Of a DNA stretch of 47,091 bases, positions 6,591 through 25,652 are shown one piece after another. The position numbers and the translations under genes were made by a program. The notes beneath the pieces were generated by a model, which was not told the DNA's origin, made no database searches, and saw only the letters and a program-made list of their open reading frames with translations. How positions within the stretch are numbered: position 1 is the stretch's first letter; each line of letters starts with the position of its first letter. This stretch comes from a virus. Its lineage: Duplodnaviria; Heunggongvirae; Uroviricota; Caudoviricetes. The stretch lies in IMG/VR virus record IMGVR_UViG_2541047918_000004; one strand, given 5' to 3'.

Positions 6591-9500
6591 TTAATCCACT
6601 CCCACTTTTTTGTTGTACTCGCGGTTAAACCGATCCACGGCAATTTTCATATCCCGCTCTACCGATTTCACCATCGCCGCCTGCTGCGCCAGACTGAGAG
6701 TACTGTCGGCGTAAATGGCATCACGCTGTTTACGCAAATCCTTCAGTCTCTTCCGGGTATCCTGCATAAGCCCGTTCATCGACAATTTTCCGTTGTTCTC
6801 GTCAATGAATGCCGTTCTTTCTGCACCGGTCAGACTCTTCAGCTCTGCGTGGTACTGCGCAACCTCCGTCATCCGGTCATACATCTTCTGCTGGTCAGCA
6901 TACGGCATCACCTCACCCGAAATTTTCCCCAGGAAGGGCACCTGCTGCTCCGGTATATCAATACCGTTCAGCGATTTCACCGCCGCATCTGTGGTTTTGG
7001 AAATGAAGCGCCCTGTCCCTCCGGAGATATAGTCAATCCAGAATTTCAGCGATTCCGGTGTGATATCCACCGCGCCGGGACGATACTGGCTACCACCTGA
7101 GAACGCATTCAGCCAGGATGCAAACGCCTTGTACGCCTCAGGCGTTGAACGTCTGCCCAGCTGGCTGTCCGGTTTCGGTGTGCCAAATGGCATGTTCTCC
7201 TGGTAAATCTGCGCCCCCATGAAGTTTTCATTCATGGCAAGGTTCGCAAACGGACGCAGAATGGTCGGCGCTGCATTTTTCAGCAATGCCCCGGACAGTG
7301 TTTCCGACGTTTCACTGCCCACAGGACTGAATGCCCCCAGGATACCACCGACAACATTACCGGCAGCACGTGAAGCAGTCAGGTCGCCCGCTGCCACACC
7401 TTCAGCAGTATGCCCGAGCAGGAAGAAAACGTTGTACCCGTAAGGCAGAGGAATACTCCAGTACTCTCCGGCCTTGCCCCCGAACACCGATTTCATAATG
7501 ACGAGGTTACGCTCTTTCACATGAGACGGCACCTTGTCATACCAGTTAACCCCGTCATCATCCTCCCCCGCAACACTGCGGTTAAGCGAGCCAAGCAGAT
7601 AACCCGCTCCCACAGCTGCAAGCGCGATTTTCTGCGGTACATTGAGATTCTTCCAGCGAAGGCGCTCCGGTAACGGCCCGTCGCCATTAAGATGTCCGAG
7701 CGTTCTCACCAGGTTTGCGGTCCCCTGAATGCTGGCGTTGGCAAACATATACAGCGAGTTCATCAGCGCTCCCTGCTCACCACGACGGTTAAAGTTCACC
7801 GTCATGTTTTTGGCAAGAGACGCCGCCTGCTGGCGTGACAAACCAGCATCACGGGCGTGTTTATAGGCAGAAAGACGCAGAGCGTTTTCAACCGCCCCGT
7901 TGGCATCCTCGACAAGGTTAAGGAACGAATTCCATGCACCGATACTCTGGCCTTTCCATCCTCCCTTCGCCAGCGATACAAGGCGATCCATTTCCTTCTG
8001 CTGGCCTTCAAGGTCACCCATGTTAAACCAGCCGGTTTTACCTCCGTCCTCAACAAACTCTTTCCACACCTTCTGCCACTGCGCACCGTTGCCCGTGAGG
8101 GTTTTACCACGCAGACTGGCGTATACGGCAGACATGGCAGACCGGCTGTCTTTCACCACAGCCAGGGCGGATAAGTTATCCAGCCCTTTCAGTTTACCGT
8201 CGCTCCTTCCCTGCTCAGCCTTCAGGTTCATCACCGCCGTCTGCACGTCACGGATGAAGTTACTGACCAGAAATTCCGGGTTATACGACGTGTTCACCGT
8301 TGCCAGGAAACGGTTAACTTTCCCCAGCGTACGGATTACGGCGTTACTGGTTTCCGGCCCCATGTTCTTCATCGCACGCATCAGGCGCGGGTCATGGAGT
8401 TTGATGTAGTAAGTTTTGCCGTCCTTTTTGGTGGTGAAGTAGCGATCCGCCATCATTGCCATAGGCACCGGACGTTCAACAACTTCGCGACGGGTTTCGC
8501 CGGTTTCCGGATCAACACGCTCTGCAATCGCCCGCATGGTGTCCGGTTTGTCATCAGTGAATACCTGCCAGTAATCCTTATCGGGATTATCCTGCACCAG
8601 TTTCAGGAAGGCGTTACCCACTTCGTTTTTGCGATTGCGGATCAGCGATTCGCTCAAATCCTGTATCGCCTGAGTGGACGGAGACTGTGCACGGGATGCA
8701 CGCCCCATGGCCTGCCTGCTTTCACGTCCGCCGATAGTGAAGCCCTTACCTGTACGGGGCAGTGACACCACACCGTCAATATCCTGACCTTTCAGGGGAA
8801 CGTAGTAACGGTAGGCGTTCTGCCAGGCATCCACCACACCACTCTCTTCAAGTCCGGCCTCACGGATAAGCTCACGGCGACGGGCCAGCATATCGTCAAT
8901 AATCCCTGCCAGACGGTCATACTGTGCCTGTTTGCCACTGTTACGTACACGCTGCATGATTTCCGCCGCTTCCGCGTTGGTCATCCCCGAACCGCCGTCC
9001 GGCATTTTCGGGTTGATTTTCGCGATATGCGCGTTACGTTCCGGCGCGTGACGGGCGTAGAGGTACTCATCCAGATCGGCCTGCGCAATTTTGTAGTCCG
9101 CCAGTAATTTAGCCAGTGGCTGAACGTAGCGCTCCTTCATCACGTTCAGGTCGTTTTCCGCCTTCCCGTGGAAGAGTTCTTCCGCCATATAAGCGTTGTT
9201 ACTGTCGTCTATTTTTCCGCCAGTTTTACGGATGTTCTCCTGAACAGCTTTCAGCACCTGGAATTTATCCTGCATCTGACGCACAAAACGCGATGCAATT
9301 GTCTCTTCCGGTGTCAGACTGCTGGTACGGGAGTAATACGGCCCCTTGCGAATATCTTCAGGATAGAGTATTTTATCTACAGAGCCGCGATAAGAACGCT
9401 CCTCTTTGGGCAATTGAAGCCCACTGTACTGAGGGTTATCGCGGCTTAATTTTTCCTTCCGGTAAAGCGTCAAACCTGCTTTATCCAGGCTATTAGCTTT

Positions 9501-12500
9501 GTTCATCCCCCCTTTTGTTCCATATACAGAAGCCACCTTGTTAATTTCTATTCGTTTATCTGTTGCCTTCATGTGCACTGCCGACACCACCGGATCACCA
9601 TTTTTATCCACGGCATCAAGCAGCATCACAACCGCATTTCTTTCTGTCGCGGAACGGTAAATTGCATCCGGATCGTGCATCAGCTCAGGAAGTCTCTCGA
9701 TAACATCCATTGGCACCACATGTTTCACTCCATTGGTTGCCTTCCGCACAGTGTCGCGGGAGATAACCAGCGGCAAATCTGGTGCGCCAAGGTGGCGCAA
9801 TACCGGCGGCGTACGCCCGATGTTTGCAGTCATTGCACCAGAACGTAACGACTTCATCATTCTGGCAAGGTCATCACGATAACGCTCGCCCTCACCTTCC
9901 GGCACTTTGAACGGATCAGGTTTACCACTACGGGGGTACTGAGACGATGCGCCCGCGCCATCCTCACGCGGCGTGTAACCTTCCCGCACACGCTGGCCTA
10001 ACGTGCGAATAGTTTCGCGAACAAGTCTGATATCGTTCAGCTCTGTCGGCTTCAGTAACCCCGTGCGACGCAGTACCCCTTTGACCAGGGCAACAACACG
10101 CTCCCACGCCGCCACAAATTTATTCGGCTGTTTCTCCGCCATATGTGCCAGAAATTCACCCGCCTGCACTTCCGGTGATTCCTTACCATAAGACGCATCA
10201 ACCTTACGCCAGGCTTCACGGATGGTGGCGTTATCACTGTCACGGGTTTTCAGCACGGTCTTAATAATCGTCTGATATTCCGCTGGCGTGACTACATGCT
10301 CCATTGCATGGTGGATAATCTCGTGACGCAGCTTCTCGCGAACGGTCCGCCCGTCAGGAATGTTATCCGCCACCAGGACAATTTCACGTTTATCCGGACG
10401 ATAGAACGCATGCACCCTGCCGTAACCGTCGAACGATTCACCCGCCAGCGCTTCAGCCTCTTTCTGTGACTTCACCACGCGGACCTTCAGGTCACTGTCC
10501 TTAATGCCACTCATCACGCCACGGGCAACCGCTTCAACCTGCGGGACCGGGCTGCCTTTGGCTTCCGCACTGCGGTTAACATCCGAAATGAGATTGCCTT
10601 CAGGTGTGCGGGTCACGCCCTTACGGGAATAAAACGCAACGCCCTTGTCCGTCTCACGGGTTTTCAGCGTACTGAACAGGTGATCGAATGCATCACGAAT
10701 ACCGCCATCCAGTTCCGCATTCGTCGGATAAGCCCAGGTGTTATCTGTGTTGTGCTCAGGTGCCTTACGGATATTGACCAGATAATCATTCTCCACGCCA
10801 GCCGTACGCGCTTTATCCTGAACATAACGCTCAAAGGCACGCGCCGCCATTTCAACATCCGTTGACCAGTACGGTTTTGAGCGCACCTCATCGAGAAGCG
10901 CTGAACGACGCGGCATGTCACTGCTGTTGATCGCTTTCATCACGCCTTTAAACGCGTCGTAAACCTCCTGACGTACCGGATATTCCGCATCAACATATCT
11001 GCCGTCTTTAAATACGCGCCCGGCACGTTGTGCTTCCGTCATATAGTCGCCACCTGACGTGATCTTCCCGTCAGTGGAAACATCATAACGACCAAAATAA
11101 TTATCCAGTGAATGGAACCATTCGTGGGCCAGCGCCCCCGGTCCGTTACCTTTTGTCAGGTTGATTGCCACCTCACCCGGCTCATAGTGTGCCGCCGCCT
11201 TACCCTTACCACGGGCACCAAAAGCAAGCCCAAGACGACCATTCAGGGAAAGCGCTTTTGTCGGAACGTTCAGCACGTCAGCCAGGTCATGCAGCGAGTC
11301 ATAAGCCCGGTTCAAATCAGCCTGACGACGCGGACCTTCCACATAATTACCAAACTGCACACCACGGAAACCAAACGCATCACTGAACTGCTCCGGCGAA
11401 ACATCCCCTTTGCGGCGTTCTGGTCCGGTGCGGTCGCGGTTAGTGGCGTTACGCTGCTCCTCACGCGAAATCTCCCGCATCTCCTTCACATGACGAACAA
11501 GCTCATCACGATGTGAATCAATGTACTTACGCGCATCACTGGCTGACTTAAAACCACCTCTCACCCGCATTTTGTTTTTGCCGTAAGCGATAAAAATATC
11601 GCCACTACGGGTATTCCGGTAAACGTCAAAGCTGATTTTGTCATCTGGTGACGGTGCTGTTTTTTCATCACCTTTCGCCCGTGACTTTTCCTCCTGCTCT
11701 GCAAACCAGGCTTTCGCCTTTGTCAGTAATTCATCCCTGCTTTCCGAGAAAAAGAGGTTACTCCCCTTATTGTCCTTATTGCGCAGTGAATAAAGTTTCT
11801 GTGGCGGATCGTAACGCTTCCCTCCGGCCGCCTGATACACACCGGATACCACCCGATAAGCAGAAGCCTTGTCCATCTGTGAAGGTGGCAGCGTGCGTAA
11901 CAGTTGCCAGGTATCCGCATAACGGGAAGGCATTCTTCCCTCCATCCACTCAGCAAGCCGTCCGGCAGTCACTTTTCCTTCCAGCATTCCCGCCACGCTT
12001 GTGCGGATGCTCTTTACACTCTCCACCCACTTCACCGCATTGAGTTTCGTTTTCGCGGGAATATCACTGCGGTACAGCGCAATCATTGCCAGTGTGTCAG
12101 CGTCGGCCCCTTCGTTCGCCAGTTTTGCATAGTCCGGTTTCGGGAACACTTTGCTCAGCGGCTGCGTGAAATAATCCCTGTCTTCCAGCGTTTTACCCAG
12201 TGTTTCGGCAAGCTGTGCATAACGGTGTTTTGCCGCGCCCTTAATCTCCTCGCCAAAGTCTTCAATTTTTGCACCACGCGCCTGCTGGTGAGTGCTCGGT
12301 TTATCTACCGGCACCGGCACCTCAGTATCCGGAACATCGGTTATGGTCTGGCGATTATCCCCGGTCTGTCTGCGCGCTTCTGCCTGCTGTGCCAGTTCCG
12401 GAAGGGAGTCACGAACCATACGAGGGAGTGATTCAGGATGTGGCATATCAACCCCACGCTGTTCAGGTGCAGGAAGTCCTTCACGCACTGGTGCTGTGGC

Positions 12501-14957
12501 GTTCTGCTCATCCGGTGATGGCAGACCACGACGAACCGGTTCGCCCTCCAGTATTTCCCCCTGGCGACCAGCGGCATTTTCCGGTGCCTGCGCACGTCCT
12601 TTCTGGAAACTCTGGCCCTTCACCTCACCGGTTGTGGTAAAACGACCACCACGTCCGGCCTGATTTTCATCCGGCGTACGCGCCACTTCTCCTGGTAACG
12701 GATATCCCTGTCCGGGATGAATATCGCCGGGAGCGGGAAGGCGTGGACGCTCAGTTAACTCCTGTGCTGTCGGACCGGCATCACCTTCAGCCATCTGTGA
12801 ACGTACAAGCTCCTCTGCCGTCGGCGCGTTGCCACGGGCAAGGCGGGCCTGCACTTCTGTATCATCCCCCGTGAAACCACGGAATCGCGGGTCACGCATG
12901 AACGCGGGCTGCTCCATCGGTTCAGCATCAGCAATACGCTCTCCGTCAGCCAGGGTGTTAATGGTCTCCGTTGCCACATCTTCAGAGAACGCAGGATTAT
13001 CCATTTCAACGGCATACTGATTCTCGCCTTTCTTCACTACGGACGGTTTCAGGCCGGTGGCGCTGGCATTGCGGAAAACGTCGCTCCCCAGAGCACTTTT
13101 TTCATCCGTGAAATAACGGTTGTCCGGACGCACCTTTTCAATGCGTTCTGCTGGTCTGGACGCACCACTCCCGTTAATTTCAATACGAACTTCATCCGGA
13201 TCGCGGAACCGCACCGTCGGGTAAATACTCCCGTCGCCATCATCCGCATTTTCCGGCTGTGGCTGTGCCTCCGGTCTGGCCTCCTGCTGAGGGCGAAGCA
13301 CATCACGGATAGCCTGTAACTGCTGCTCTTCAGTATCAGTACGCCCTTCCTTCAGGCTGAGTTTTCGGTATTCCTCAAGCAGTTCAGGGCGCGGCTTCGC
13401 CTTCAGCTCATCCATCACCGCCTGTCGCTTCGCCTGTTCATCCAGTTCATTTAACAGCTGGCTGGCGGCTTCCCGGCGATGAACGGCAGACGTGTCTCCC
13501 TCAGGTGCCATATCCGCATCAGCATACTGTTCCAGAAGTTGCTCGCGATTCATGCCCTGCATGGATTCGCGATGCTGTGCCACCGGATCAGCCGGTTCGG
13601 GTTGCGGGGCTGCTTCACCCTGCTGTACGACTTCAGCCTCACGCATGGCGGTTTCTTCTGCGGCCTGACGTTTTCCACGATATCCGGCAACCGCACCGAA
13701 CGGTGCGCCCATCGCTGCACCAAGAGCGGCTCCTTCGATCGTTGCGTCAGCTACCCCCTCCCATGGTGATATATCCATTCCGGCAGTCTCACGCAACGTC
13801 ATATTTTCCTGGTAACGCGAATAGCCGCCCTGCGCCGCATTAATCGTCCCCTGTTCCGTGGCATTTCTGACAATGCCGCTTTTAACGGTCTTCGCCGTGC
13901 CCCGCATCGCCAGATTAAACAACTGAGCATCGCCCAGTTTTGCCGCCATGGCATTCACAGCCAGCAATTCAGGATCGGTTGCCAGCTGCGCGCGCACCTC
14001 ATCGGCAACACGCTCTTTTGCCAGATCCATTTTCTGGCGATCAGTAAGCTGTGCGTGCTGCGGATCTGCATCAATTGACAAAAACGTCTGCTGAAATTTC
14101 GGGGACTTCGCCAGCTCAGAGTAATCCGCGTTAAGAACAGAGTCTGCTGCTGCCATTGCACTCTGCCCCTGTGCGCTGGCTGAGGAATGGGTGATCAGGC
14201 CTGCCTGGAATAAATCCGGCATTTTTTTATCGACAGCTTCTGCTGCCAGTGCGGTAGCTCTTTCCGGCTGCATCCCTGCCGCAATGTATTTTTTCTCCAG
14301 CCCGGCGGTCAGCACTTTTCGCAGAGTGACTTCACCCAGCTTTTTAGTCACACCGCCTGCAACCATATCAGGTACAAGGGCACCAATCAGGTTTACGCCC
14401 TTCGCCACCCAGACCGCAGAATCATCATATCCTTCAGTCATCGGTGTATTCAGCGCCCGCTGCGCCCCCGGCGACATCTTGCCAGTCAGCCATTCATCCG
14501 AGGCTTTAGCGCCGCCACTGACTGCCTTGCCTGTGACCTTCAGACCTTTACCGACAGTATCAGTAACCGCATTTTTTCCATCAGGCAGAGTGTCGATGAC
14601 CTCATCCGCCCCCTTGCTGCCACCGACAAAAATATCCTGAACAGTTGCGACTCCCGGCAGCCCCATACGGCTGAACTCATTTAAAATACGCGCCCCTGTT
14701 TTTACCGGGTTCTGAATCATCGCATCACCGAGTCCACGGGCCATTTCCCCTGCCCCCCGGACGGACTGGGCGACACCTTTCCCCATAGTTGGCAATACAT
14801 CGCCCAGGCTGAACGACGTGCTGTTGTCCTTCCAGCGATTGGGATCGGAGAAAAACGCATCATAGCTGTCAGTCTCGCCCGGCAGCTGAATGTTCAGGCT
14901 GTTGCGGTTCTGGTTGCCAAATTGCGCTTCAGGGCGCTGTTCATCGGAATAAGCCAT
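6591..14957 (-). CDS. Giant protein (2788 aa), candidate virion-internal/ejection polyvalent protein with two HExxH zincin-like motifs
   Basis: Single uninterrupted ORF of 8.4 kb. Gly/Ala-rich N-terminus, long acidic Pro/Gln-rich linker, then motifs GALAHEWFHSLD and LRHEIIHHAMEH. Last gene of an operon of small proteins (15026..18163) in a phage with no tail tube or sheath genes, so not a tape measure. Function is inference only. Confidence 0.7.
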   Translation of the reverse strand: MAYSDEQRPEAQFGNQNRNSLNIQLPGETDSYDAFFSDPNRWKDNSTSFSLGDVLPTMGKGVAQSVRGAGEMARGLGDAMIQNPVKTGARILNEFSRMGLPGVATVQDIFVGGSKGADEVIDTLPDGKNAVTDTVGKGLKVTGKAVSGGAKASDEWLTGKMSPGAQRALNTPMTEGYDDSAVWVAKGVNLIGALVPDMVAGGVTKKLGEVTLRKVLTAGLEKKYIAAGMQPERATALAAEAVDKKMPDLFQAGLITHSSASAQGQSAMAAADSVLNADYSELAKSPKFQQTFLSIDADPQHAQLTDRQKMDLAKERVADEVRAQLATDPELLAVNAMAAKLGDAQLFNLAMRGTAKTVKSGIVRNATEQGTINAAQGGYSRYQENMTLRETAGMDISPWEGVADATIEGAALGAAMGAPFGAVAGYRGKRQAAEETAMREAEVVQQGEAAPQPEPADPVAQHRESMQGMNREQLLEQYADADMAPEGDTSAVHRREAASQLLNELDEQAKRQAVMDELKAKPRPELLEEYRKLSLKEGRTDTEEQQLQAIRDVLRPQQEARPEAQPQPENADDGDGSIYPTVRFRDPDEVRIEINGSGASRPAERIEKVRPDNRYFTDEKSALGSDVFRNASATGLKPSVVKKGENQYAVEMDNPAFSEDVATETINTLADGERIADAEPMEQPAFMRDPRFRGFTGDDTEVQARLARGNAPTAEELVRSQMAEGDAGPTAQELTERPRLPAPGDIHPGQGYPLPGEVARTPDENQAGRGGRFTTTGEVKGQSFQKGRAQAPENAAGRQGEILEGEPVRRGLPSPDEQNATAPVREGLPAPEQRGVDMPHPESLPRMVRDSLPELAQQAEARRQTGDNRQTITDVPDTEVPVPVDKPSTHQQARGAKIEDFGEEIKGAAKHRYAQLAETLGKTLEDRDYFTQPLSKVFPKPDYAKLANEGADADTLAMIALYRSDIPAKTKLNAVKWVESVKSIRTSVAGMLEGKVTAGRLAEWMEGRMPSRYADTWQLLRTLPPSQMDKASAYRVVSGVYQAAGGKRYDPPQKLYSLRNKDNKGSNLFFSESRDELLTKAKAWFAEQEEKSRAKGDEKTAPSPDDKISFDVYRNTRSGDIFIAYGKNKMRVRGGFKSASDARKYIDSHRDELVRHVKEMREISREEQRNATNRDRTGPERRKGDVSPEQFSDAFGFRGVQFGNYVEGPRRQADLNRAYDSLHDLADVLNVPTKALSLNGRLGLAFGARGKGKAAAHYEPGEVAINLTKGNGPGALAHEWFHSLDNYFGRYDVSTDGKITSGGDYMTEAQRAGRVFKDGRYVDAEYPVRQEVYDAFKGVMKAINSSDMPRRSALLDEVRSKPYWSTDVEMAARAFERYVQDKARTAGVENDYLVNIRKAPEHNTDNTWAYPTNAELDGGIRDAFDHLFSTLKTRETDKGVAFYSRKGVTRTPEGNLISDVNRSAEAKGSPVPQVEAVARGVMSGIKDSDLKVRVVKSQKEAEALAGESFDGYGRVHAFYRPDKREIVLVADNIPDGRTVREKLRHEIIHHAMEHVVTPAEYQTIIKTVLKTRDSDNATIREAWRKVDASYGKESPEVQAGEFLAHMAEKQPNKFVAAWERVVALVKGVLRRTGLLKPTELNDIRLVRETIRTLGQRVREGYTPREDGAGASSQYPRSGKPDPFKVPEGEGERYRDDLARMMKSLRSGAMTANIGRTPPVLRHLGAPDLPLVISRDTVRKATNGVKHVVPMDVIERLPELMHDPDAIYRSATERNAVVMLLDAVDKNGDPVVSAVHMKATDKRIEINKVASVYGTKGGMNKANSLDKAGLTLYRKEKLSRDNPQYSGLQLPKEERSYRGSVDKILYPEDIRKGPYYSRTSSLTPEETIASRFVRQMQDKFQVLKAVQENIRKTGGKIDDSNNAYMAEELFHGKAENDLNVMKERYVQPLAKLLADYKIAQADLDEYLYARHAPERNAHIAKINPKMPDGGSGMTNAEAAEIMQRVRNSGKQAQYDRLAGIIDDMLARRRELIREAGLEESGVVDAWQNAYRYYVPLKGQDIDGVVSLPRTGKGFTIGGRESRQAMGRASRAQSPSTQAIQDLSESLIRNRKNEVGNAFLKLVQDNPDKDYWQVFTDDKPDTMRAIAERVDPETGETRREVVERPVPMAMMADRYFTTKKDGKTYYIKLHDPRLMRAMKNMGPETSNAVIRTLGKVNRFLATVNTSYNPEFLVSNFIRDVQTAVMNLKAEQGRSDGKLKGLDNLSALAVVKDSRSAMSAVYASLRGKTLTGNGAQWQKVWKEFVEDGGKTGWFNMGDLEGQQKEMDRLVSLAKGGWKGQSIGAWNSFLNLVEDANGAVENALRLSAYKHARDAGLSRQQAASLAKNMTVNFNRRGEQGALMNSLYMFANASIQGTANLVRTLGHLNGDGPLPERLRWKNLNVPQKIALAAVGAGYLLGSLNRSVAGEDDDGVNWYDKVPSHVKERNLVIMKSVFGGKAGEYWSIPLPYGYNVFFLLGHTAEGVAAGDLTASRAAGNVVGGILGAFSPVGSETSETLSGALLKNAAPTILRPFANLAMNENFMGAQIYQENMPFGTPKPDSQLGRRSTPEAYKAFASWLNAFSGGSQYRPGAVDITPESLKFWIDYISGGTGRFISKTTDAAVKSLNGIDIPEQQVPFLGKISGEVMPYADQQKMYDRMTEVAQYHAELKSLTGAERTAFIDENNGKLSMNGLMQDTRKRLKDLRKQRDAIYADSTLSLAQQAAMVKSVERDMKIAVDRFNREYNKKVGVD

Positions 14958-15025
14958 ACAGACTCCATAAAAAAACCCGGCACAATGACCGGGTATCAGG
15001 AAATAGTATTAACGGGAATGGTGAA

Positions 15026-16291
15026 TTACTGCGCGTAATTCTGTTTCAGACCACGGATAAACTCAGATGCAGAGGCCGCACTATCATCTCTGGCCTGTTC
15101 CCCCCTGGCCTTTTGAATACGGAGAAAATTCGCATACCCGTTCTCCAGCAATTTCTGATTCTGAGGCTCCAGCATTTCTGGCTGACGGGAAGCAACTTCT
15201 CTGGCGAATGCCTGCTTATCCGGATCATCACCCGCCCAACTGGTAATCCCTTGTTGAATTTTTTGCTGCTGAATTTTCTGCTGATGTTGCGGTGAACCAG
15301 TTGCAGCATAATATTCATCCACCGCAGCCTGTGCATTACCGCCATTCTTGATCGCGTCCGCCGCTACGTTGCTGGCCCCCTTCTGAAGCTCTTTCAGAGA
15401 AAGTCCCTGCTGCTTCGGCATAAAATAACCATAATTTTTCGATATCTCTGCAAATTTGCTGCGATCCCTGACCTGAGCGATAGCCTTATCAACGGGTATC
15501 GCCAGCACGGTTTGATCATCAGGGTGCGCACTGCCGTATTCTGTTACAGGTTTATGCGCGGTGGAGCCATCGCTGTATGTGAGATCAAGGCCAATAAGTA
15601 CGTACCCTTCCTGCTGCGCCGGTACGATACTGCCAATCCTGGCCCCTTTTATCGTTTTTTCCCCGGTTGAATCAGGCATGCCAATACGCTGTTGTAGTTC
15701 CGGGGCAAACACGCCGGAAAGCACATCGAGATTTTCCGGGGTATTGAGTGAAGCGATCGCCCTGTCCGGCTTGTCATCAAAGATTTTTTGCAGGTTGTTC
15801 ACGGCCTGACCCGCTTTCGCTACATAGCCATCATTCGCCATCAGCCTCAGCGGATTACCCTCTGACAACTGGCCGTAAAGACGCATTGCTGCATCCCGAT
15901 CGCCAGCATCCACAGCCTTTCCAAGCGCCGCCATCACAGGCTGATCGCGCGCCAGCATATCGTTATACTCAAGCCGTCGCTGGTTGTATTTCTGCATCCG
16001 GAGTCGCTGCTGCTCCATACCCAGCGACGCATTCCGGTAATTCTGGTTGGCGTTAAACTCCCTTTCCTGCAGTGCATAATTACGGTCGTCGACTTTGGCT
16101 CTGTAATCAAAGTTCCGCTGATCAACGTCTTTATTATGTTCAAACTGCGACTGTGCAAATTCAAAATCGCGCTCGTTATTTTTCTGTTGTTGAGCAAGCT
16201 GTGCTTCTCGCAAACCAAGTTCCTTACGACGGGTCATTGCCTGGTCAACCGTGCTGAATCCGGCAAGTAAACCCTGTGCAAATCCGCTCAT
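15026..16291 (-). CDS. Hypothetical protein (421 aa), putative internal virion/ejection protein
   Basis: Long ORF, Gln-rich coiled-coil-like N-terminus, tightly linked upstream of the giant gene; no recognisable catalytic motif. Confidence 0.5.
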   Translation of the reverse strand: MSGFAQGLLAGFSTVDQAMTRRKELGLREAQLAQQQKNNERDFEFAQSQFEHNKDVDQRNFDYRAKVDDRNYALQEREFNANQNYRNASLGMEQQRLRMQKYNQRRLEYNDMLARDQPVMAALGKAVDAGDRDAAMRLYGQLSEGNPLRLMANDGYVAKAGQAVNNLQKIFDDKPDRAIASLNTPENLDVLSGVFAPELQQRIGMPDSTGEKTIKGARIGSIVPAQQEGYVLIGLDLTYSDGSTAHKPVTEYGSAHPDDQTVLAIPVDKAIAQVRDRSKFAEISKNYGYFMPKQQGLSLKELQKGASNVAADAIKNGGNAQAAVDEYYAATGSPQHQQKIQQQKIQQGITSWAGDDPDKQAFAREVASRQPEMLEPQNQKLLENGYANFLRIQKARGEQARDDSAASASEFIRGLKQNYAQ

Positions 16292-16301
16292 TCACCACTC
16301 C

Positions 16302-16553
16302 TTAAAACAAAGAACCAGCAATACCACCTATGACAGCACCAATAGCCGCACCGGGGAGACCACCAACAGCAGCGCCCATAGCTGCACCCGTACCAATTCC
16401 CGTGCCGATATTCTGTTTGTTCTGCGCTTTCTGTTGCGCCGCCATCTGTTTGTTCGCGGCCTCAATTTCTTCACGTCGTCTGTCGGCATCACTTATTCCC
16501 TGTAATGCCTCACGCCGCGACTGATTCGCAATATCCAGTAAACCGTATCCCAT
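16302..16553 (-). CDS. Small glycine-zipper membrane protein (83 aa)
   Basis: C-terminal GTGIGTGAAMGAAVGGLPGAAIGAVIGGIAGSLF glycine-zipper segment; 10-nt spacing to neighbours suggests a co-transcribed operon member. Confidence 0.5.
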   Translation of the reverse strand: MGYGLLDIANQSRREALQGISDADRRREEIEAANKQMAAQQKAQNKQNIGTGIGTGAAMGAAVGGLPGAAIGAVIGGIAGSLF

Positions 16554-16562
16554 ATTGCCCCC

Positions 16563-17009
16563 TTACGCTGACACCAGTTTTCCGCCAACACTCAGTTGTT
16601 GTCTTGCAGGTGCAGAAGCCCCCGTCAGTATGTTCATCTGGCGATCCTGCTCTGCTTCACGGATACCATTTTTCGCGCCAGCAATTGCCAGAGCATTACG
16701 CAAACCCAGTGTGTTACTGTTGGGATTATCCGGGCGGCTTACCCCGTATCTCGCCATCTGGTTATCCTGCGCCATCTGCGCTGTACGGAGACTGGAAGTG
16801 GCAAGGCCGCCCACCCGGGCAAGCTGCGCATTCATCAGGCTGTTGTTCTCGCCAAGGTCAGCCAGCCTTGCCACGCGGGGCAAATATCTGGTTCGCCAGT
16901 CGTCGTATTGTTGGCGTGTCAGCGCTGCTGACGTCTGCCAGTCACCCTGTGGGCGGGCTGCGCCTGAATAACCAGCCCTTGCGAGAGTTTCGTATTTGCC
17001 ATACTCCAT
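16563..17009 (-). CDS. Hypothetical protein (148 aa), putative virion protein
   Basis: ORF in the same operon, 3-nt gap to the upstream gene; no motif recognised. Confidence 0.45.
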   Translation of the reverse strand: MEYGKYETLARAGYSGAARPQGDWQTSAALTRQQYDDWRTRYLPRVARLADLGENNSLMNAQLARVGGLATSSLRTAQMAQDNQMARYGVSRPDNPNSNTLGLRNALAIAGAKNGIREAEQDRQMNILTGASAPARQQLSVGGKLVSA

Positions 17010-17011
17010 AA

Positions 17012-17668
17012 TTACAGTCTCCAGTTCTGAGCCTGATGCTGAATAGCATTAGCGCCGGTGCCTGGCGTTTTAGCGCCGCCACCACCTCCGTTACCGCCAG
17101 CCTTATGCATCGCGTACGCACCTACAGCTCCCAGACCAGCGCCAACAAGAGAAGCTCGCCCCTGTTGTTTCGTAAACGCCGCCTGTGCATCCGATTTGGC
17201 TTTTGCCAGACTGCTGTCAGCCAGGGAGTTAAAACTCTGTAACGCATCTGCCTTCTGACCGGAACCGAGAGCCGCAACATCCTGTAGCCCGGCAATATAT
17301 TTATCTGCCTGCGATACCTGCCCCCGTGTGGTCGTGTCAATCTGCCCGATCACCTGGTCGCTTTGATTTGCATCCATTACTGCATTAAAACGACCACTGG
17401 ATGGGTCAACGCCGGACTGAGCAAGATTACCCGCCAGCTCCCTTCGCGCTTCACCAAACTGTTTCTGATACCCAAGATTTGTTGTGCCTGCGATATTTTC
17501 GTACTGCTGCTCACTGTTAAGGTCATCGACCTTTTTCATGAAGTTATCTTCTGCCGGACGGAGAATATTTTTGTAATCCTGCCACCCTTTCCAGGCCACC
17601 TCTTCCTGTGCTATTTGCGCTGCTGTTGGTTTTACTTTGGTATCACCACCACCTTTACTTCCGCCCAT
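17012..17668 (-). CDS. Hypothetical Gly/Gln-rich protein (218 aa), putative virion protein
   Basis: ORF in the same operon; glycine-rich termini (MGGSKGGGD..., ...GGNGGGGGAKTPG); no motif recognised. Confidence 0.45.
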   Translation of the reverse strand: MGGSKGGGDTKVKPTAAQIAQEEVAWKGWQDYKNILRPAEDNFMKKVDDLNSEQQYENIAGTTNLGYQKQFGEARRELAGNLAQSGVDPSSGRFNAVMDANQSDQVIGQIDTTTRGQVSQADKYIAGLQDVAALGSGQKADALQSFNSLADSSLAKAKSDAQAAFTKQQGRASLVGAGLGAVGAYAMHKAGGNGGGGGAKTPGTGANAIQHQAQNWRL

Positions 17669-17761
17669 AATGGCTCCTCAGATAACAAAAAACCCTGCCG
17701 GAGCAGGGTCAGAATGTGAATTGCAATGTGGGTTTACGCTCGATGATGAATACAGTGGCAG

Positions 17762-18163
17762 TCAGACTGCTATCCTGAACACCATGAAGCCATCCTCATC
17801 ATCCGGCATTCGCTCAAAGCCCAGACGTTTTCCCAGCCGGATAAATCCTCGTCTTGCCGTATGAAATTCGGCCCAGCGTCCGCCAGCCAGGCGGGTTAAT
17901 GTCTTCACCTCCGGCAGATAACGCTCAACACTCTTACTCCCCGTACACACGCCCAGTAACACCAGAACATAAGGGATACCATCGTCACTGAGCACAGAAC
18001 GCAGCACCAGAAAACCATCCGGTGCCTCAAAGCAAAACGCCTGCTTTTTAAGGCCGGCGTCTTTAACTTCATTCATAAATTCAGGGTTGCGGGAATTTCT
18101 CACAACACGCTGCATATACCGGAGAATTGTGTCGTCCATTCTCTCACCAGAAACGGGTGCCAT
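17762..18163 (-). CDS. Hypothetical protein (133 aa), first gene of the operon leading to the giant gene
   Basis: ORF preceded by a 430-bp intergenic region containing a perfect 9-bp stem hairpin and the conserved 15-bp motif. A weak resemblance to an acetyltransferase motif (RRGFIRLGKRLGF) is too poor to call. Confidence 0.4.
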   Translation of the reverse strand: MAPVSGERMDDTILRYMQRVVRNSRNPEFMNEVKDAGLKKQAFCFEAPDGFLVLRSVLSDDGIPYVLVLLGVCTGSKSVERYLPEVKTLTRLAGGRWAEFHTARRGFIRLGKRLGFERMPDDEDGFMVFRIAV

Positions 18164-18188
18164 ATCGGCTGAACCTCAGCAACCAGTT

Positions 18189-18210
18189 GACGGGGACTTT
18201 CGTCCCCGTC
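18189..18210 (-). promoter_or_regulatory. Perfect 9-bp stem hairpin (GACGGGGAC-tttc-GTCCCCGTC) in the 5' leader of the 17762..18163 operon
   Basis: Read directly; about 25 nt upstream of the start codon; no T-run follows on the minus strand, so not a classical terminator. Confidence 0.35.
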
Positions 18211-18222
18211 GCGGTTTTCCTA

Positions 18223-18237
18223 CTGCTTACACTGTAA
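18223..18237. promoter_or_regulatory. Conserved 15-bp motif CTGCTTACACTGTAA upstream of the giant-protein operon
   Basis: Exact match to the motif at 6468 and 25889; about 60 nt upstream of the 17762..18163 start. Confidence 0.35.
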
Positions 18238-18542
18238 GAACGCCGCAAACTCCGCTCCCCACAAATTCAGCCGGAACTCACACAACGAGCCGTGTAACAT
18301 CCAGATGGTGAAGATTACCGTCATACAAATTGTGACGGTGATGAGCGATTTTTGCGACATAGCGCTTGCCTCCTGAGTGGAGAGGCGCTAACCTTCTACT
18401 TGCTTAAGGTATGATGGTTAGGGCCTCGGGTTAAACAAAATGTTTGACTCGGGGCCTTTCCACATCAGGCCTTCAGGTTCTCCCTCCAGCCATCAGCCGA
18501 AAGGCACCCGCGCATAATCTACGATTTTTGCCCTGCACGGGC

Positions 18543-18567
18543 AACAAAAAACCCGCCATCACAGCGG
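18543..18567 (-). terminator. Rho-independent terminator downstream of the lom-like gene
   Basis: Minus-strand hairpin cccgc-tgtgatg-gcggg followed by TTTTTT, 25-50 nt after the stop codon. Confidence 0.55.
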
Positions 18568-18592
18568 GTTATGACATGTTGTCGGGTATTAC

Positions 18593-19330
18593 TCAGAATT
18601 TCAGGCCAATGCCTGCAAATAAACCATCAGTTTTCCAGTCGCCAGAGCCTGAGCTTTCATAAGTGACGTCCATAGTAACACTTTCATTGAAGTTAAATTG
18701 CGCGCCGACAGACCATGCAATAGACGTTTTTTTGGTGCTGTTACTTTCAGAAAAACTACCGGCACCATGATTAAGATTGTCGTTAATTTTCAAGTCAGTG
18801 GTGACTTTTGCAACCCCCATGCCAGCCATTGCATACACACTGAGGTATTCGTTAAACCGCCACGAAGGACCGGATAGTAGACTCCAGTAATTAGCCCTGA
18901 TATCAGTTCTCGCTGAAGCTGCCGGGTTTTTTACCTCTCGTGATGGATCGGAAGGCTTAACATCAATAAATGCCTGCGCATTAGTCATGGAGCGCGCCCA
19001 TGTAAAAGAGGCTATAACACCCAGTTCATCAGTTATCTCGTAACGATACCTGATGCTCATCCCCAGGGGGCTTTTGGCTGTGCCGTCATGCCCCCGGGCA
19101 ATAGCATTTTCGTATTCAGCTGATGAATTAAAATGGTTTACGTTTACAACATTCCTGAACGTATCCCGGTTATAAACACCCGCGTCTCTAACAAAATCCT
19201 TCAGCCCGGGGAAGCGTATGTGTGCAAACCCGAGAGATACCGTACTATCGCCTGATGCTGCATTTACCTGTGCAGTTAAGCAACTCATCACCAGAACTGC
19301 ACACGCAAAAAATTTCATGATACTTTTCAT
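18593..19330 (-). CDS. lom: Lom/Ail/PagC-family outer-membrane beta-barrel protein
   Basis: Signal peptide; C-terminus DVTYESSGSGDWKTDGLFAGIGLKF closely parallels lambda Lom (...YEGSGSGDWRTDGFIVGVGYKF, recalled from memory); internal YRYEITDELGVIASF matches the family. AT-rich relative to flanking structural genes. Confidence 0.85.
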   Translation of the reverse strand: MKSIMKFFACAVLVMSCLTAQVNAASGDSTVSLGFAHIRFPGLKDFVRDAGVYNRDTFRNVVNVNHFNSSAEYENAIARGHDGTAKSPLGMSIRYRYEITDELGVIASFTWARSMTNAQAFIDVKPSDPSREVKNPAASARTDIRANYWSLLSGPSWRFNEYLSVYAMAGMGVAKVTTDLKINDNLNHGAGSFSESNSTKKTSIAWSVGAQFNFNESVTMDVTYESSGSGDWKTDGLFAGIGLKF

Positions 19331-19409
19331 TTTAAGTATTTCTCTGAATTAAAGGATGCGATGTCTGAAAGGAACGCTTTCGTTTTACACTATTAAAGTT
19401 TTTCTTACG

Positions 19410-20036
19410 CTAATCATATATTGAGGAATTAATAACCAGAACTTTATCTATATACGGCTTTCGGATATCCCATGTTGCACCACCGGAATAATGCTCACAG
19501 GAATATATTTTATTTCCTGTAGCACCAGTGGATGTGGTGTAAATCGGTCGGTCATAAGGTGTTCGTTTCCAGTTATAATATCCAACCAGTGCAGGCATAA
19601 TTGCGCATGGATATCCAAGGTCCTTCTCAAACTTGATATCAACTGGTATTAACTTCGCGTCAAGCAGCATCATTTCGCCATGGTAAATCATCTCACCCGA
19701 CGGGTTATACATGGCGATACCATACTCAGAAGGTTGAGTAACCATATTCGCAAAAGCATAAACAGTCGTAACACCGGGATTCGTTCCCCTGACAATTTGA
19801 TGAAGCCTTAAGGCATGATATCCATCAATTTGTTCATGCGTGTACATAACATCGGCCTTTTTCTCTGTTCTGATAAAGAAAAAACAACTTTTTCCTGACG
19901 GGATTGACGTTTTAAAAAAAGCCTTCTCAGTCGCCGGAATAGTTCCCTTATTGATCAGACACTGAGGCGTAAACCCCGGGCTTATCCACAAGCTGCCATC
20001 TGGTTTCGTAATGCTTAAACCATACATACAACTCAC
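19410..20036 (-). CDS. Hypothetical protein (208 aa), AT-rich moron or tail-tip accessory
   Basis: ORF overlapping the upstream gene by 4 nt (ATGA); no motif recognised. Confidence 0.45.
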   Translation of the reverse strand: MSCMYGLSITKPDGSLWISPGFTPQCLINKGTIPATEKAFFKTSIPSGKSCFFFIRTEKKADVMYTHEQIDGYHALRLHQIVRGTNPGVTTVYAFANMVTQPSEYGIAMYNPSGEMIYHGEMMLLDAKLIPVDIKFEKDLGYPCAIMPALVGYYNWKRTPYDRPIYTTSTGATGNKIYSCEHYSGGATWDIRKPYIDKVLVINSSIYD

Positions 20037-23581: not shown

Positions 23582-24052
23582 TCAGGCACCAACAAGCCGT
23601 CTGACGCTCACACCATACAGCCCGTTTTTCGCCATTCCCGTATACAGAAAGGTATTCACCGTCTTTGTGTTAATACCCATCTCACTGGCAAGGCGGCAGG
23701 GTCTCGACTGGCGGTAGACATAACCGAACATCACCACCATCTCTGACATCGTCAGCGGGCGGGCAGCACTGTTATACGTCCAGACGCCGTTGTGTATGGC
23801 ATCACTTATCTGCTCACCATCACGGAGCAACTCCGCATCCAGTTGCAGAAAATGACGCCCCTGGAACATACAGCGCATCAGCCTGCCCAGCAGGCCATCA
23901 CTGATTATCAGCCAGGATTCGTCAAAGTCCGGGATATAACGGCGGTTCTCCGGCAGGAAAAACTCCCTCGCCAGTATCACACTGTGCCCCTTCAGTAACG
24001 CCTGCAGACCATACTCCAGATAGCGGTTCCTGGTAGCCAGAATCACCTTCAT
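23582..24052 (-). CDS. LuxR/GerE-type HTH transcriptional regulator (about 156 aa), paralogue of 4671..5144
   Basis: Start inferred at MKVILATRNRYLEYGLQ; C-terminal LTMSEMVVMFGYVYRQSRPCRLASEMGINTKTVNTFLY is a LuxR-type HTH; roughly 75 percent identical to the copy at 4671..5144. Confidence 0.5.
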   Translation of the reverse strand: MKVILATRNRYLEYGLQALLKGHSVILAREFFLPENRRYIPDFDESWLIISDGLLGRLMRCMFQGRHFLQLDAELLRDGEQISDAIHNGVWTYNSAARPLTMSEMVVMFGYVYRQSRPCRLASEMGINTKTVNTFLYTGMAKNGLYGVSVRRLVGA

Positions 24053-24140
24053 CGCAGCACCTTCCTGTTTTTTATGCCCCATGAAAAACGGCAGACCAGA
24101 GTCCTGCGCCTGCCGCCATACTTCATGTCACTTTCAGCAA

Positions 24141-25652
24141 TTAAAACTCGAAGTTAACGCCCATGTTGTAGGACACATCGCCATCACTCGCTGCAATACC
24201 CGCTTTCGCTGCGGTCTGCTCGTTGAAACGGTAACCAACACCCACGGCAACAGCCTGTTTATCACTGTACCCCCCCAGGGCAGCAGTGGCGTTGAATTTC
24301 CCCACACTGTACGGCTGGAAAAGCCCCGCCAGCGCTGCACTCTGTGCTGCTGCACGCTTCATCTCTTCGTGATTCTCACGAATTTGACGCTGCTGACTGT
24401 TCAGGCGTGCATTATGCTCCTGCAACTGGCGAGTATTGGACTGAATAGCCTGTGTATTTTTAGTAACCCGGCGGTCAACGCTACCAACTGCATAATCAAT
24501 ACGGTCTGTTCTGCCAGACAGAGCAACGAGACCATCATTGACGGCGATAGTTTTAGTCGCACCTTCTGCACGGGTAAGTTTTCCGTCAGGGTTCACACCA
24601 ACTGTCGTTCTGGAGTCTGTATATTCACGAGACTTTTTCGCTTCGACTACAAGGCGGGTATTCGTATCCTGAGCCAGTTGCTCAACACTGTCTTTTACAC
24701 GGTCAACCTGACGAACGGTTGCAGCATCTGAGGGACGAGTACCGTCACTCAGACCACCAAGCACCCGGGTTTTATAAGCCTTACCCGGCTCTGCTTCATA
24801 ACCGATATAAACCTCATTGTCACGGGTTGTGCGTGAATTAGCTCCTAATGCAACACTGTTTTTATTTGTTACTGTTGCCTTTGCCCCTAACGCAGTACCT
24901 TCTGTTGCATTTTTATCCACTTTTGCTTTGGCTCCTAATGCAACACCTTCAGTTGCATTTTCATCCACTTTTGCGTAATTACCTATAGCGGTACCATAAA
25001 TAGCAGAACCATCAACATAAGCAGCTGTTCCGGCGGCTGTTGAAGCATCTGCATAGGCATATGCTCCCACTCCCAGAGCTGTACTTTGTTTACCGTCCGC
25101 AGCAGCCCATGAGCCCACTGCTGTTGCAAATTTTTTATCCGCTCTGGCCCCTGTACCAACAGCTACTGAGAACTCACCAGAGGCTTTCGCATCGCTACCC
25201 AGAGAAACCTTCCCATTCTCCCCATCTTCGACGCTGAAACCTGTAATTTTTGTTCTCTGCAGACTGTATACTTTGTTATATACATCACGAACAACGCTAT
25301 CAGTCATTCTGTGCGACTGAGACGGTCCATTCTTTTTTTTCTCAGCTGTTTGAGCAAAATCGTTCAGCGCACCGTCATGAATTGTGTACGTAATGCCACT
25401 GCCATTGATTATTACATCCCCATTTGAATCAAATGTGAAAAGTGTCCTCTTGCCGTTGTTCTTCTCTTTTACTTCGTATTTGAAGTTACCATTATCGCCT
25501 GTCTTTACAACTTCATAGGTATTCCCCCATTTATTGTTACCTGTGGCATACGGCACTGTGTATTTTTCTTCCTGCGCACTCACCCCACCACTCATCACCA
25601 GAAGCCCGGCCAGAGAAGATGACAGGAGTGTCATTGTAAACTTTTTACTCAT
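24141..25652 (-). CDS. Trimeric autotransporter adhesin, Eib-like (YadA-like head repeats, stalk and anchor)
   Basis: Signal peptide [27 protein letters not shown]; seven or more YadA-type head repeats ([58 protein letters not shown]); coiled-coil stalk; YadA-like C-terminal anchor. Size and prophage location resemble E. coli immunoglobulin-binding Eib proteins; the Eib assignment is from memory of the family. Confidence 0.8.

Follow-up and report, generated by a model that had tools for sequence, protein, structure and literature searches.

A five-gene block ending in a giant polyvalent protein as the probable ejection cassette of a 933W/Sp5/phi24B-type podovirus prophage

Introduction

Short-tailed Shiga toxin-converting (Stx) phages, which spread Shiga toxin genes among Escherichia coli, commit approximately 14% of their genome to a single gene, and the authors of a study on one such phage, phi24B, have asked how its 300-kDa product is packed, passes through so narrow a tail, and then functions in the cell (10.64898/2026.04.10.717836). 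The present work concerns the corresponding genes of the IMG/VR virus record IMGVR_UViG_2541047918_000004, a stretch of 47,091 nucleotides (here referred to as the window) in which almost all coding sequence is located on the minus strand. Six consecutive minus-strand open reading frames (ORFs) of 133, 218, 148, 83, 421, and 2788 amino acids (aa), between positions 18163 and 6591, had been reported in an earlier sequence-based prediction, and all six were recovered at these positions. We propose that the block at positions 17668 to 6591, which encodes the 218-, 148-, 83-, 421-, and 2788-aa proteins, probably serves a 933W/Sp5/phi24B-type podovirus as its cassette of internal-virion (ejection, or "pilot") proteins.

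Orthologs of these genes have been studied genetically in prophage Sp5 of E. coli O157:H7 strain Sakai, for which Mondal et al. (2016) constructed in-frame deletions (PMC5155283). Removal of either ORF79 (421 aa) or ORF80 (2793 aa) resulted in zero plaques and zero lysogens, while DNase-resistant DNA was still packaged and the heads were normal-looking (PMC5155283). Deletion of ORF76, which by ECs numbering is the 218-aa gene, strongly lowered infectivity and lysogenization, with residual infectivity being retained (PMC5155283). The phi24B preprint presents a full model of capsid and tail, composed of the portal, two adaptor rings, the nozzle, six fibers, and the needle; gp47, the giant protein of phi24B, is abundant in purified virions and is not part of this cryo-electron microscopy (cryo-EM) model, and the authors propose it to be an encapsidated ejection protein (10.64898/2026.04.10.717836). 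Diffuse density observed in the lumen of the portal and adaptor is lost on ejection (10.64898/2026.04.10.717836).

Virion presence, absence from the tail and capsid model, and essentiality have been established by others for the orthologs, and the object of this study is already known through those of Sp5 and phi24B and through the papers on polyvalent proteins and the CLCA_X family. Because orthologs have already been deleted, complemented, and detected by mass spectrometry, a further prophage copy does not amount to a discovery. The computations reported here supply the domain content of the giant, a zincin fold, an architecture of constant module and variable cargo, a conserved gene order, and cysteine avoidance.

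Orthologs, virion association, and the proposed ejection pathway

The 11.6-kb block matched 186 phage records at an identity of at least 90% (DNA 92-97%), nearly all of which were Stx-converting phages of E. coli and Shigella, and at least 80% of a slightly longer query was covered by matches in each of 420 complete E. coli genomes. In Stx2-converting phage 86 (Traversvirus, Sepvirinae), as annotated in its reference record, the same six genes follow lom, and Sp5 harbors them as ORF75 to ORF80 (ECs_1237 to ECs_1242), in the same order and with equal lengths except for that of the giant (2793 aa). The six encoded proteins share 94.7, 95.9, 95.9, 92.8, 89.8, and 93.2% identity, respectively, with those of Sakai. 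The block is, accordingly, directly orthologous to that of Sp5, phi24B, and 933W, with differences which are allelic only and which fall mostly within linker segments of the giant: identity to Sakai was 69% across aa 801-900 (positions 12258-12557) and 80% across aa 1801-1900 (9258-9557), both being linker-like segments between conserved domains, as against 91-100% for most other stretches of 100 residues.

The remainder of the window encodes a terminase, a portal protein, a major capsid protein, two adaptor-like structural proteins, fibers, a nozzle, and a needle, and no tube, sheath, or tape measure was found in this gene set. The window thus represents a 933W/Sp5/phi24B-type (Traversvirus) podovirus prophage. 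That the giant is not a tape measure, as had been argued from the gene content, was corroborated by Pfam and PHROGs scans of the protein, which yielded no tape-measure family.

The virion table of phi24B lists gp47, gp48 (labeled "Transcription factor?"), gp50, gp51, and a low-count 86-aa frame (10.64898/2026.04.10.717836), the last of which corresponds to the glycine-zipper (83-aa) gene; no frame in that table matches the 133-aa gene. None of these five listed proteins is represented in the cryo-EM map. While the text of the preprint sets a "homolog of a bacteriocin" aside as contamination (10.64898/2026.04.10.717836), the 83-aa protein may be a true minor virion component, since it is a conserved member of the cassette. 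Peptides of gp47 were recovered from its N-terminal region, the linker, the center, and the C-terminal region (frame aa 78-2441). In the phi24B supplement, which gives counts per gel slice for whole proteins and not for single peptides, those of gp47 are highest in the uppermost slices and decrease further down the gel. This profile would fit a largely intact protein accompanied by some fragments.

As a separate observation on the phi24B data, a crude spectral-count estimate for sample EA1833, based on peptide-spectrum matches per residue scaled to 12 portal copies and valid as an order of magnitude only, put the giant at approximately 20 copies and the 421-, 218-, and 148-aa proteins at 30-50 copies apiece. 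For the capsid protein, this calculation fell approximately 1.5-fold short of our own estimate of ~535 copies for a T=9 shell.

These data on the orthologs, together with the four polyvalent Pfam domains detailed below, uphold the original prediction of a virion-packaged polyvalent protein or podovirus ejection protein, given that the giant is found in phi24B virions and is essential in Sp5, where heads are nonetheless DNA filled. The accompanying suggestion that it counters host defenses is hypothetical for this protein. In the pathway proposed here, the cassette would be transcribed within the late transcript and its five cysteine-free products would be packed into the head with the DNA. Receptor binding would be followed by release of the tail needle, upon which these proteins would pass out via the tail channel, either preceding or accompanying the DNA; the small proteins and glycine-zipper segments would help to build a passage through the envelope, and the giant would follow as a loosely folded "beads on a string" polypeptide. 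Actual ejection, the formation of a conduit, the identity of the essential part, and the targets of the zincins (the protein itself or the host) are what we infer.

Cysteine avoidance across the cassette

The five cassette proteins contain 0 cysteines in 3658 residues (P~4e-13), compared to 64 cysteines in 8213 residues (0.78%) among 20 other late or accessory proteins encoded by the window. A similar avoidance was apparent in 34 diverged giants (loci L031-L082; contig GC content 0.38-0.65), which together harbor 7 cysteines in 94,424 residues, enzymatic cargo included, and none in their last 900 residues. The ejection proteins gp50, gp51, and gp52 of phage N4 (locus L003) also lack cysteine (0 in 4294 residues), with three N4 replication enzymes possessing 6-12 each. 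According to the study of phage DEV, the ejection operon of the Schitoviridae is conserved in its suppression of cysteine, which the authors relate to passage through the oxidizing periplasm (PMC11445570). Cysteine avoidance is the strongest sequence-level argument available here that the cassette would work like an ejection operon. No mention of this property in the present family of giants was found in the text examined from the Stx-phage and polyvalent-protein papers.

Domain architecture of the giant protein

The 2788-aa protein is encoded at positions 6591..14957 on the minus strand, as are all of its features given below, and matches phrog_616 over its full length (Sp5 ORF80/ECs_1242; phi24B gp47). 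Pfam analysis identified four domains, all above the gathering score: LPD5 (3e-45), LPD1 (2e-23), MuF_C (1e-17), and LPD38 (3e-48). All four were defined for polyvalent proteins by Iyer et al. (2017), who describe LPD5 as potentially enzymatic, MuF-C as an RNase-like PBECR domain, and LPD38 as occurring only in phage-type proteins. The giant gene is located downstream of the portal, capsid, adaptor, nozzle, needle, and fiber genes on the same strand, and by domain repertoire and late virion-gene setting its product is classified as a large polyvalent protein. The N-terminal MuF portal-associated domain (MuF/SPP1 gp7) is absent from the giant, in which only the C-terminal MuF_C was matched.

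The composition of the first third of the protein agrees with the earlier description of a Gly/Ala-rich N terminus followed by an acidic, Pro/Gln-rich linker. The Gly/Ala-rich region (aa 1-440; 13638..14957) has weak relatives in Aeromonas and Vibrio phages and includes a glycine-zipper segment (GAALGAAMGAPFGAVAG; aa 402-433; 13659..13754), while the linker (aa 441-900; 12258..13637), which is of low hydrophobicity, represents the least conserved part in comparison with Sakai; these approximately 460 residues are presumed to be disordered. A conserved lead-in and LPD5 (aa 1045-1194) follow at aa 901-1194 (11376..12257). In the proposed arrangement, LPD5 would open a cargo array continued by a CLCA_X-type zincin that includes LPD1, a second HExxH domain, and the MuF-C/PBECR RNase-like domain, and the protein would end in a helical C-terminal module (C-module) of ~920 residues.

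Both of the HExxH motifs reported earlier were located, namely, HEWFH at aa 1278-1282 (11112..11126) and HEIIH at aa 1545-1549 (10311..10325). From composition, 0.03 such motifs would be expected in the giant, and at least two occurred in only 5 of 20,000 shuffled sequences. Neither motif lies within a Pfam match. MuF_C (aa 1744-1833; 9459..9728) is predicted to adopt an RNase-like PBECR fold and not that of a peptidase, and the "Muf-C metallopeptidase domain" of the phi24B preprint consequently conflates two parts of the protein, as both HExxH motifs are outside MuF_C.

The first motif belongs to a zincin-like domain (aa 1176-1434; 10656..11432) of the CLCA_X type, which includes LPD1 (aa 1355-1434). 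Over its entire length, the NCBIfam CLCA_X model could be aligned with aa 1176-1431 (E 1.7e-44), and because this alignment extends across both, the HExxH region and "LPD1" are regarded as one unit of ~250 residues. As the score of 152 bits is below the family cutoff of 260, domain 1 is considered a relative of CLCA_X and not a member of the subfamily. In the description by Lenart et al. (2013), CLCA_X forms a zincin-like family that occurs in phages and plasmids and is the sister of the self-cleaving metalloprotease domain of CLCA; its signature is HExxH followed by a conserved Asp, and many members exceed 1000 aa (PMC3650047). Unlike in that family, the domain is here internal to a 2788-aa protein, and its C-terminal third is modeled separately by Pfam as LPD1.

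Across 44 sequences of 31-72% identity, the residues H1257, H1278, E1279, W1280, H1282, D1285, E1369, R1373, and E1376 of domain 1 are invariant, and three of these (D1285, E1369, and E1376) are candidates for the third metal ligand. The invariant residues of domain 1 fit the phage-type peptidase described by Iyer et al. (2017), in which strand 2 ends in a conserved His and an Asp lies three residues past the motif. An AlphaFold2 model of aa 1041-1745, built from the 44-sequence alignment, reached a mean pLDDT of 81 and places motif 1 in a helix (236-253 of the model). The modeled HExxH region matches zincin metallopeptidases, in support of the zincin-like character originally assigned to it, and the zincin core fold was recognized in domain 1; a Foldseek search of the model against the PDB returned no match.

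The second HExxH domain (aa 1470-1660; 9978..10550) is composed of three strands and two helices, interleaved, followed by the HExxH helix and a helical bundle. Its motif is retained in 16-20 of the approximately 24 aligned sequences that possess the region and is located in the AlphaFold2 model on a helix preceded by strands, and the domain is probably of the zincin type as judged from the model. Weak matches were obtained to Peptidase_M76 (E 0.2) and to the HExxH region of N4 gp50 (31 columns; E 0.004; probability 8%). Kinship of this domain with the C1 subdomain of N4 was considered and is too weak to claim.

The constant, mostly helical C-module (aa 1870-2788; 6594..9350; model pLDDT 85, pTM 0.81) includes LPD38 (aa 2471-2676; 6930..7547). 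It recurs in many proteins at an identity of 33-58% over 97-99% of its length, the identity for the wider set of relatives being 31-58%, and in IMG/VR contigs it always forms the C terminus of proteins of ~1100-4180 aa. A profile search of 1.84 billion representatives recovered 7,813 clusters (counted at 50% identity) with the C-module at E<=1e-30; among the matches listed, the module ends at the protein C terminus, with protein lengths of up to 5181 aa. The N-terminal cargo differs among these proteins and includes ART-PolyVal, PBECR5, ResIII helicase, RadC/JAB, and methyltransferase domains. No informative structural relative of the C-module was found, and no relation to the ejection proteins of T7, P22, or N4 was detectable in sequence or fold.

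The combination of a constant module, variable cargo, and the essentiality of the Sp5 ortholog on K-12 suggests that the C-module is the essential packaging or ejection part and that the upstream domains are cargo. A more tentative possibility, which we consider rather doubtful at present, is that the C-module represents a distinct and very widespread translocation or ejection platform to which interchangeable cargo is fused, as in polymorphic toxins, and that the cargo of the Stx type would target RNA or proteins of the host within the first few minutes of an infection. If true, the Stx-phage cargo (two zincins and an RNase-like domain) could influence defense evasion or the lysogeny decision in enterohemorrhagic E. 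coli. The constant C-module with its swappable cargo, the CLCA_X-type zincin including "LPD1," and the five cysteine-free cassette members represent handles for experiments.

Evaluation of the ejection cassette against alternative explanations

Several points weigh against the assignment of the block as an ejection cassette. The giant is without a sequence match to any solved structure, a phmmer search of the whole protein against PDB sequences having returned no match and a profile of the central region low-complexity noise only. Zinc binding and catalysis by the HExxH domains are putative, and the second of these domains is less well supported than the first. The role of the C-module is argued solely from its conservation, as it has no informative structural relative, and it displayed no similarity to the CTD-C2 region of N4 gp50, either as a single sequence or in an hhalign comparison with an 18-sequence profile (probability 0.15%). 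Finally, an anti-fiber antibody left the heads of the Sp5 ORF79 and ORF80 deletants unlabeled (PMC5155283), a finding which a pure ejection-protein model does not predict.

It is because of this missing label that Mondal et al. refer to ORF79 and ORF80 as tail-formation genes, and the same authors noted a COG1483 (AAA+) match (PMC5155283). The giant and the 421-aa protein could accordingly be assembly factors required for construction or attachment of the short tail, perhaps in the form of an energy-using AAA+ machine, and which are not delivered into the host. This explanation of the DNA-filled, unlabeled heads is nevertheless improbable, since the tail of phi24B has been fully modeled without gp47 and gp48, yet both are abundant in virions, and since avoidance of cysteine along whole polypeptides would not be expected of a cytoplasmic assembly factor. 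Furthermore, no Walker A motif ([AG]xxxxGK[ST]) is present in the giant of the window or of Sakai, and no ATPase family was matched in Pfam or NCBIfam. The AAA+ ATPase reading of the giant was rejected for want of a P-loop and of an ATPase family match, and the tail-fiber reading was likewise rejected: neither fiber nor tape-measure homology, both named in advance as grounds for doubting the prediction, was found, while the protein is present in phi24B virions and a metallopeptidase fold is predicted. The ejection and tail data could be reconciled if internal proteins residing in the portal/adaptor lumen were needed for stable attachment of the tail.

The presence of helicase, methyltransferase, and ART cargo in family members, the polyvalent-protein framework as such, and a match of the giant to phrog_10089 ("DarB-like antirestriction") would be in keeping with an anti-defense effector in the manner of P1 DarB, which would be packaged only to neutralize host immunity and be dispensable on a defenseless host. 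That the giant serves this function alone is, however, unlikely. K-12 MG1655 was the background both for construction of the Sp5 ORF80 deletion and for its testing (PMC5155283), and the absence of plaques and lysogens on its own host points to an essential role in entry or assembly beyond counter-defense. In addition, the giant is devoid of helicase and methylase domains in Pfam, and the phrog_10089 match covers aa 2346-2676, i.e., the shared C-module only. PADLOC returned no defense-system match for the giant and four of the small proteins, two marginal matches of the 83-aa protein (E 0.004-0.007) being disregarded.

Many podovirus ejection proteins, such as T7 gp16, carry a wall-degrading domain. 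The proposal in the phi24B preprint that the metallopeptidase domain cuts peptidoglycan peptides so that the periplasm can be crossed (10.64898/2026.04.10.717836) is nonetheless very improbable for this protein, as it assigns the peptidase to MuF-C, an RNase-like PBECR fold which holds neither HExxH motif, and as no lysozyme, transglycosylase, M15, or M23 family was detected and the fold neighbors lend no support.

Gene organization and borders of the cassette

The intergenic spacings from the 133-aa gene to the giant gene are 93, 2, 9, 10, and 68 nt, and plausible ribosome-binding sites precede all six ORFs. The 218-aa virion protein (17012..17668, minus strand; Sp5 ORF76/ECs_1238, phi24B gp51) is cysteine free, with a Gly-rich and mildly hydrophobic C-terminal part, and matches phrog_611 and, weakly, phrog_8003 ("virion structural protein"). 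It is followed on the minus strand by the cysteine-free 148-aa virion protein (16563..17009; ECs_1239, phi24B gp50; phrog_596) and by the 83-aa protein (16302..16553; ECs_1240), also cysteine free, which carries the RefSeq label "bacteriocin." The glycine-zipper protein announced for this cluster is the latter, which harbors six overlapping GxxxGxxxG motifs and a Gly-zipper_YMGG match below threshold (26.7 bits versus a cutoff of 28.9); its sequence makes it a candidate membrane-inserting ejection component. The 421-aa virion protein (15026..16291, minus strand; Sp5 ORF79/ECs_1241, phi24B gp48; phrog_601), again without cysteine, precedes the giant.

Of the six-gene operon originally proposed, the five-gene cassette is retained, while inclusion of the 133-aa gene (17762..18163, minus strand; ortholog of Sakai ECs_1237; match to phrog_610 only) placed the border one gene too wide. 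This ORF is probably a separate accessory gene, because a terminator-like hairpin (17691..17710, minus strand; 8 pairs, 5 of them GC, followed by TTTTGTT) lies in the 93-nt gap that separates it from the 218-aa gene, because its product contains 2 cysteines and is absent from the phi24B virion table, and because it was found at few of the diverged loci. These loci, with C-module identities of 42-56%, and of 75% for one additional Salmonella-type locus, were judged by tblastn where enough sequence upstream of the giant was present, which was so for 12: the 218-aa gene was detected in 12/12 (by selection), the 83-aa gene in 11/12, the 148-aa gene in 10/12, the 421-aa gene in 7/12, and the 133-aa gene in 3/12, with conserved gene order upstream of the giant.

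A second terminator-like hairpin with a T-run (14975..14994, minus strand) is located in the 68-nt gap, just upstream of the ribosome-binding site of the giant gene. The two hairpins may shield the virion genes from transcription of accessory genes in the lysogen, or else adjust expression levels. A further terminator-like hairpin follows lom (18570-18550).

The 429 nt that separate lom from the 133-aa gene had been described as a promoter-like gap, a description which did not hold: this stretch contains hairpins and a Hok/Gef-family ORF of 46 aa (MSQKSLITVTICMTVIFTIWMLHGSLCEFRLNLWGAEFAAFLQCKQ; 18220-18360, minus strand; Pfam HOK_GEF, 33.2 bits), and a consensus scan of its minus strand detected no sigma-70-like site. 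A GC-rich, strong hairpin of 10 bp (18188-18211) lies 3' of the Hok/Gef ORF. An Rfam search of positions 5800-19500 returned no RNA family and no sok-like RNA beside the hok ORF; a Hok/Gef gene is annotated in RefSeq at the equivalent position in related prophages. The layout is thus read as lom, a hok-type toxin gene, the 133-aa accessory gene, and then the five-gene virion cassette (17668-6591), the whole of which is presumably transcribed as part of a Q-antiterminated late transcript, as is general for lambdoid phages.

Neighboring genes in the window

The flank downstream of the giant gene differs from that of Stx2-86, in which an integrase gene follows directly, in that genes for a YadA-anchor protein and a serine-protease autotransporter are present here. 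The latter is a 1353-aa protein of the SPATE type (Peptidase_S6 and an autotransporter beta-domain; 274-4335, minus strand). Beside it, 4671-5216 and 5231-6229 (both minus strand) encode a 181-aa protein and a 332-aa protein with a YadA membrane anchor, a pair which resembles the 503- and 166-aa pair at 24141-25652 and 23582-24082 (shared PHROGs 10464/9547 and 6585).

A specificity subunit resembling those of type I restriction-modification systems (Methylase_S; 43793-44887, minus strand) and an N6 DNA methylase (44947-46908, minus strand) are encoded directly upstream of a nanS-like esterase gene (41209-43182). Phages of the 933W type carry stx at the position upstream of the nanS-like esterase gene. 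No stx-sized ORF pair was found upstream of that gene within the window, which ends at 47091.

Comparison with known ejection and polyvalent-protein systems

In outline, the cassette is comparable to gp14/gp15/gp16 of T7 and gp7/gp16/gp20 of P22, which are internal proteins required for infectivity that provide short-tailed phages with a trans-envelope conduit. No sequence relationship to these proteins was found, PHROG matches being to families of unknown function, and the T7 and P22 systems possess nothing comparable to a multi-enzyme polypeptide of 2788 aa.

The giant itself has its place among the polyvalent giants (Iyer et al. 2017; Bcep22/JC1-type DarB-like proteins), with which it shares LPD5, LPD1, MuF-C/PBECR, LPD38, a zincin hub, and a late-gene position. 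It differs from the DarB-type giants in that helicase and methyltransferase cargo is lacking here and in that its ortholog is essential even without a restriction barrier. The Bcep22-like podovirus JC1 displays portal, capsid, and head-closure homology with 933W, and its 4515-aa "DarB-like" protein and proteins encoded just upstream are virion associated, while phage PTXU04 encodes a 2198-aa LPD38 protein which is needed for infection.

The Schitoviridae operon (N4 gp52-gp51-gp50; DEV gp73-gp72-gp71) likewise places small virion proteins upstream of a giant (~3500 aa), all of them cysteine free. A 2026 study of N4 describes gp52 and gp51 as pore- and tunnel-forming ejection proteins and gp50 as a giant "beads-on-a-string" protein, the C-terminal domain of which comprises an HExxH zincin-like subdomain and a helical region of ~110 kDa without structural relatives (PMC13434306). 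In contrast to N4 gp50, the giant described here harbors no RNA polymerase domain in Pfam, and the small proteins differ in number and size; since the profile-profile comparison of the C-terminal regions was negative, the cassette is considered to work like the N4 operon and not to belong to the same family. The resemblance in layout is close, an HExxH domain being combined here with a 920-residue helical module without structural relatives, in a giant whose phi24B ortholog, like N4 gp50, is invisible in reconstructions of the virion.

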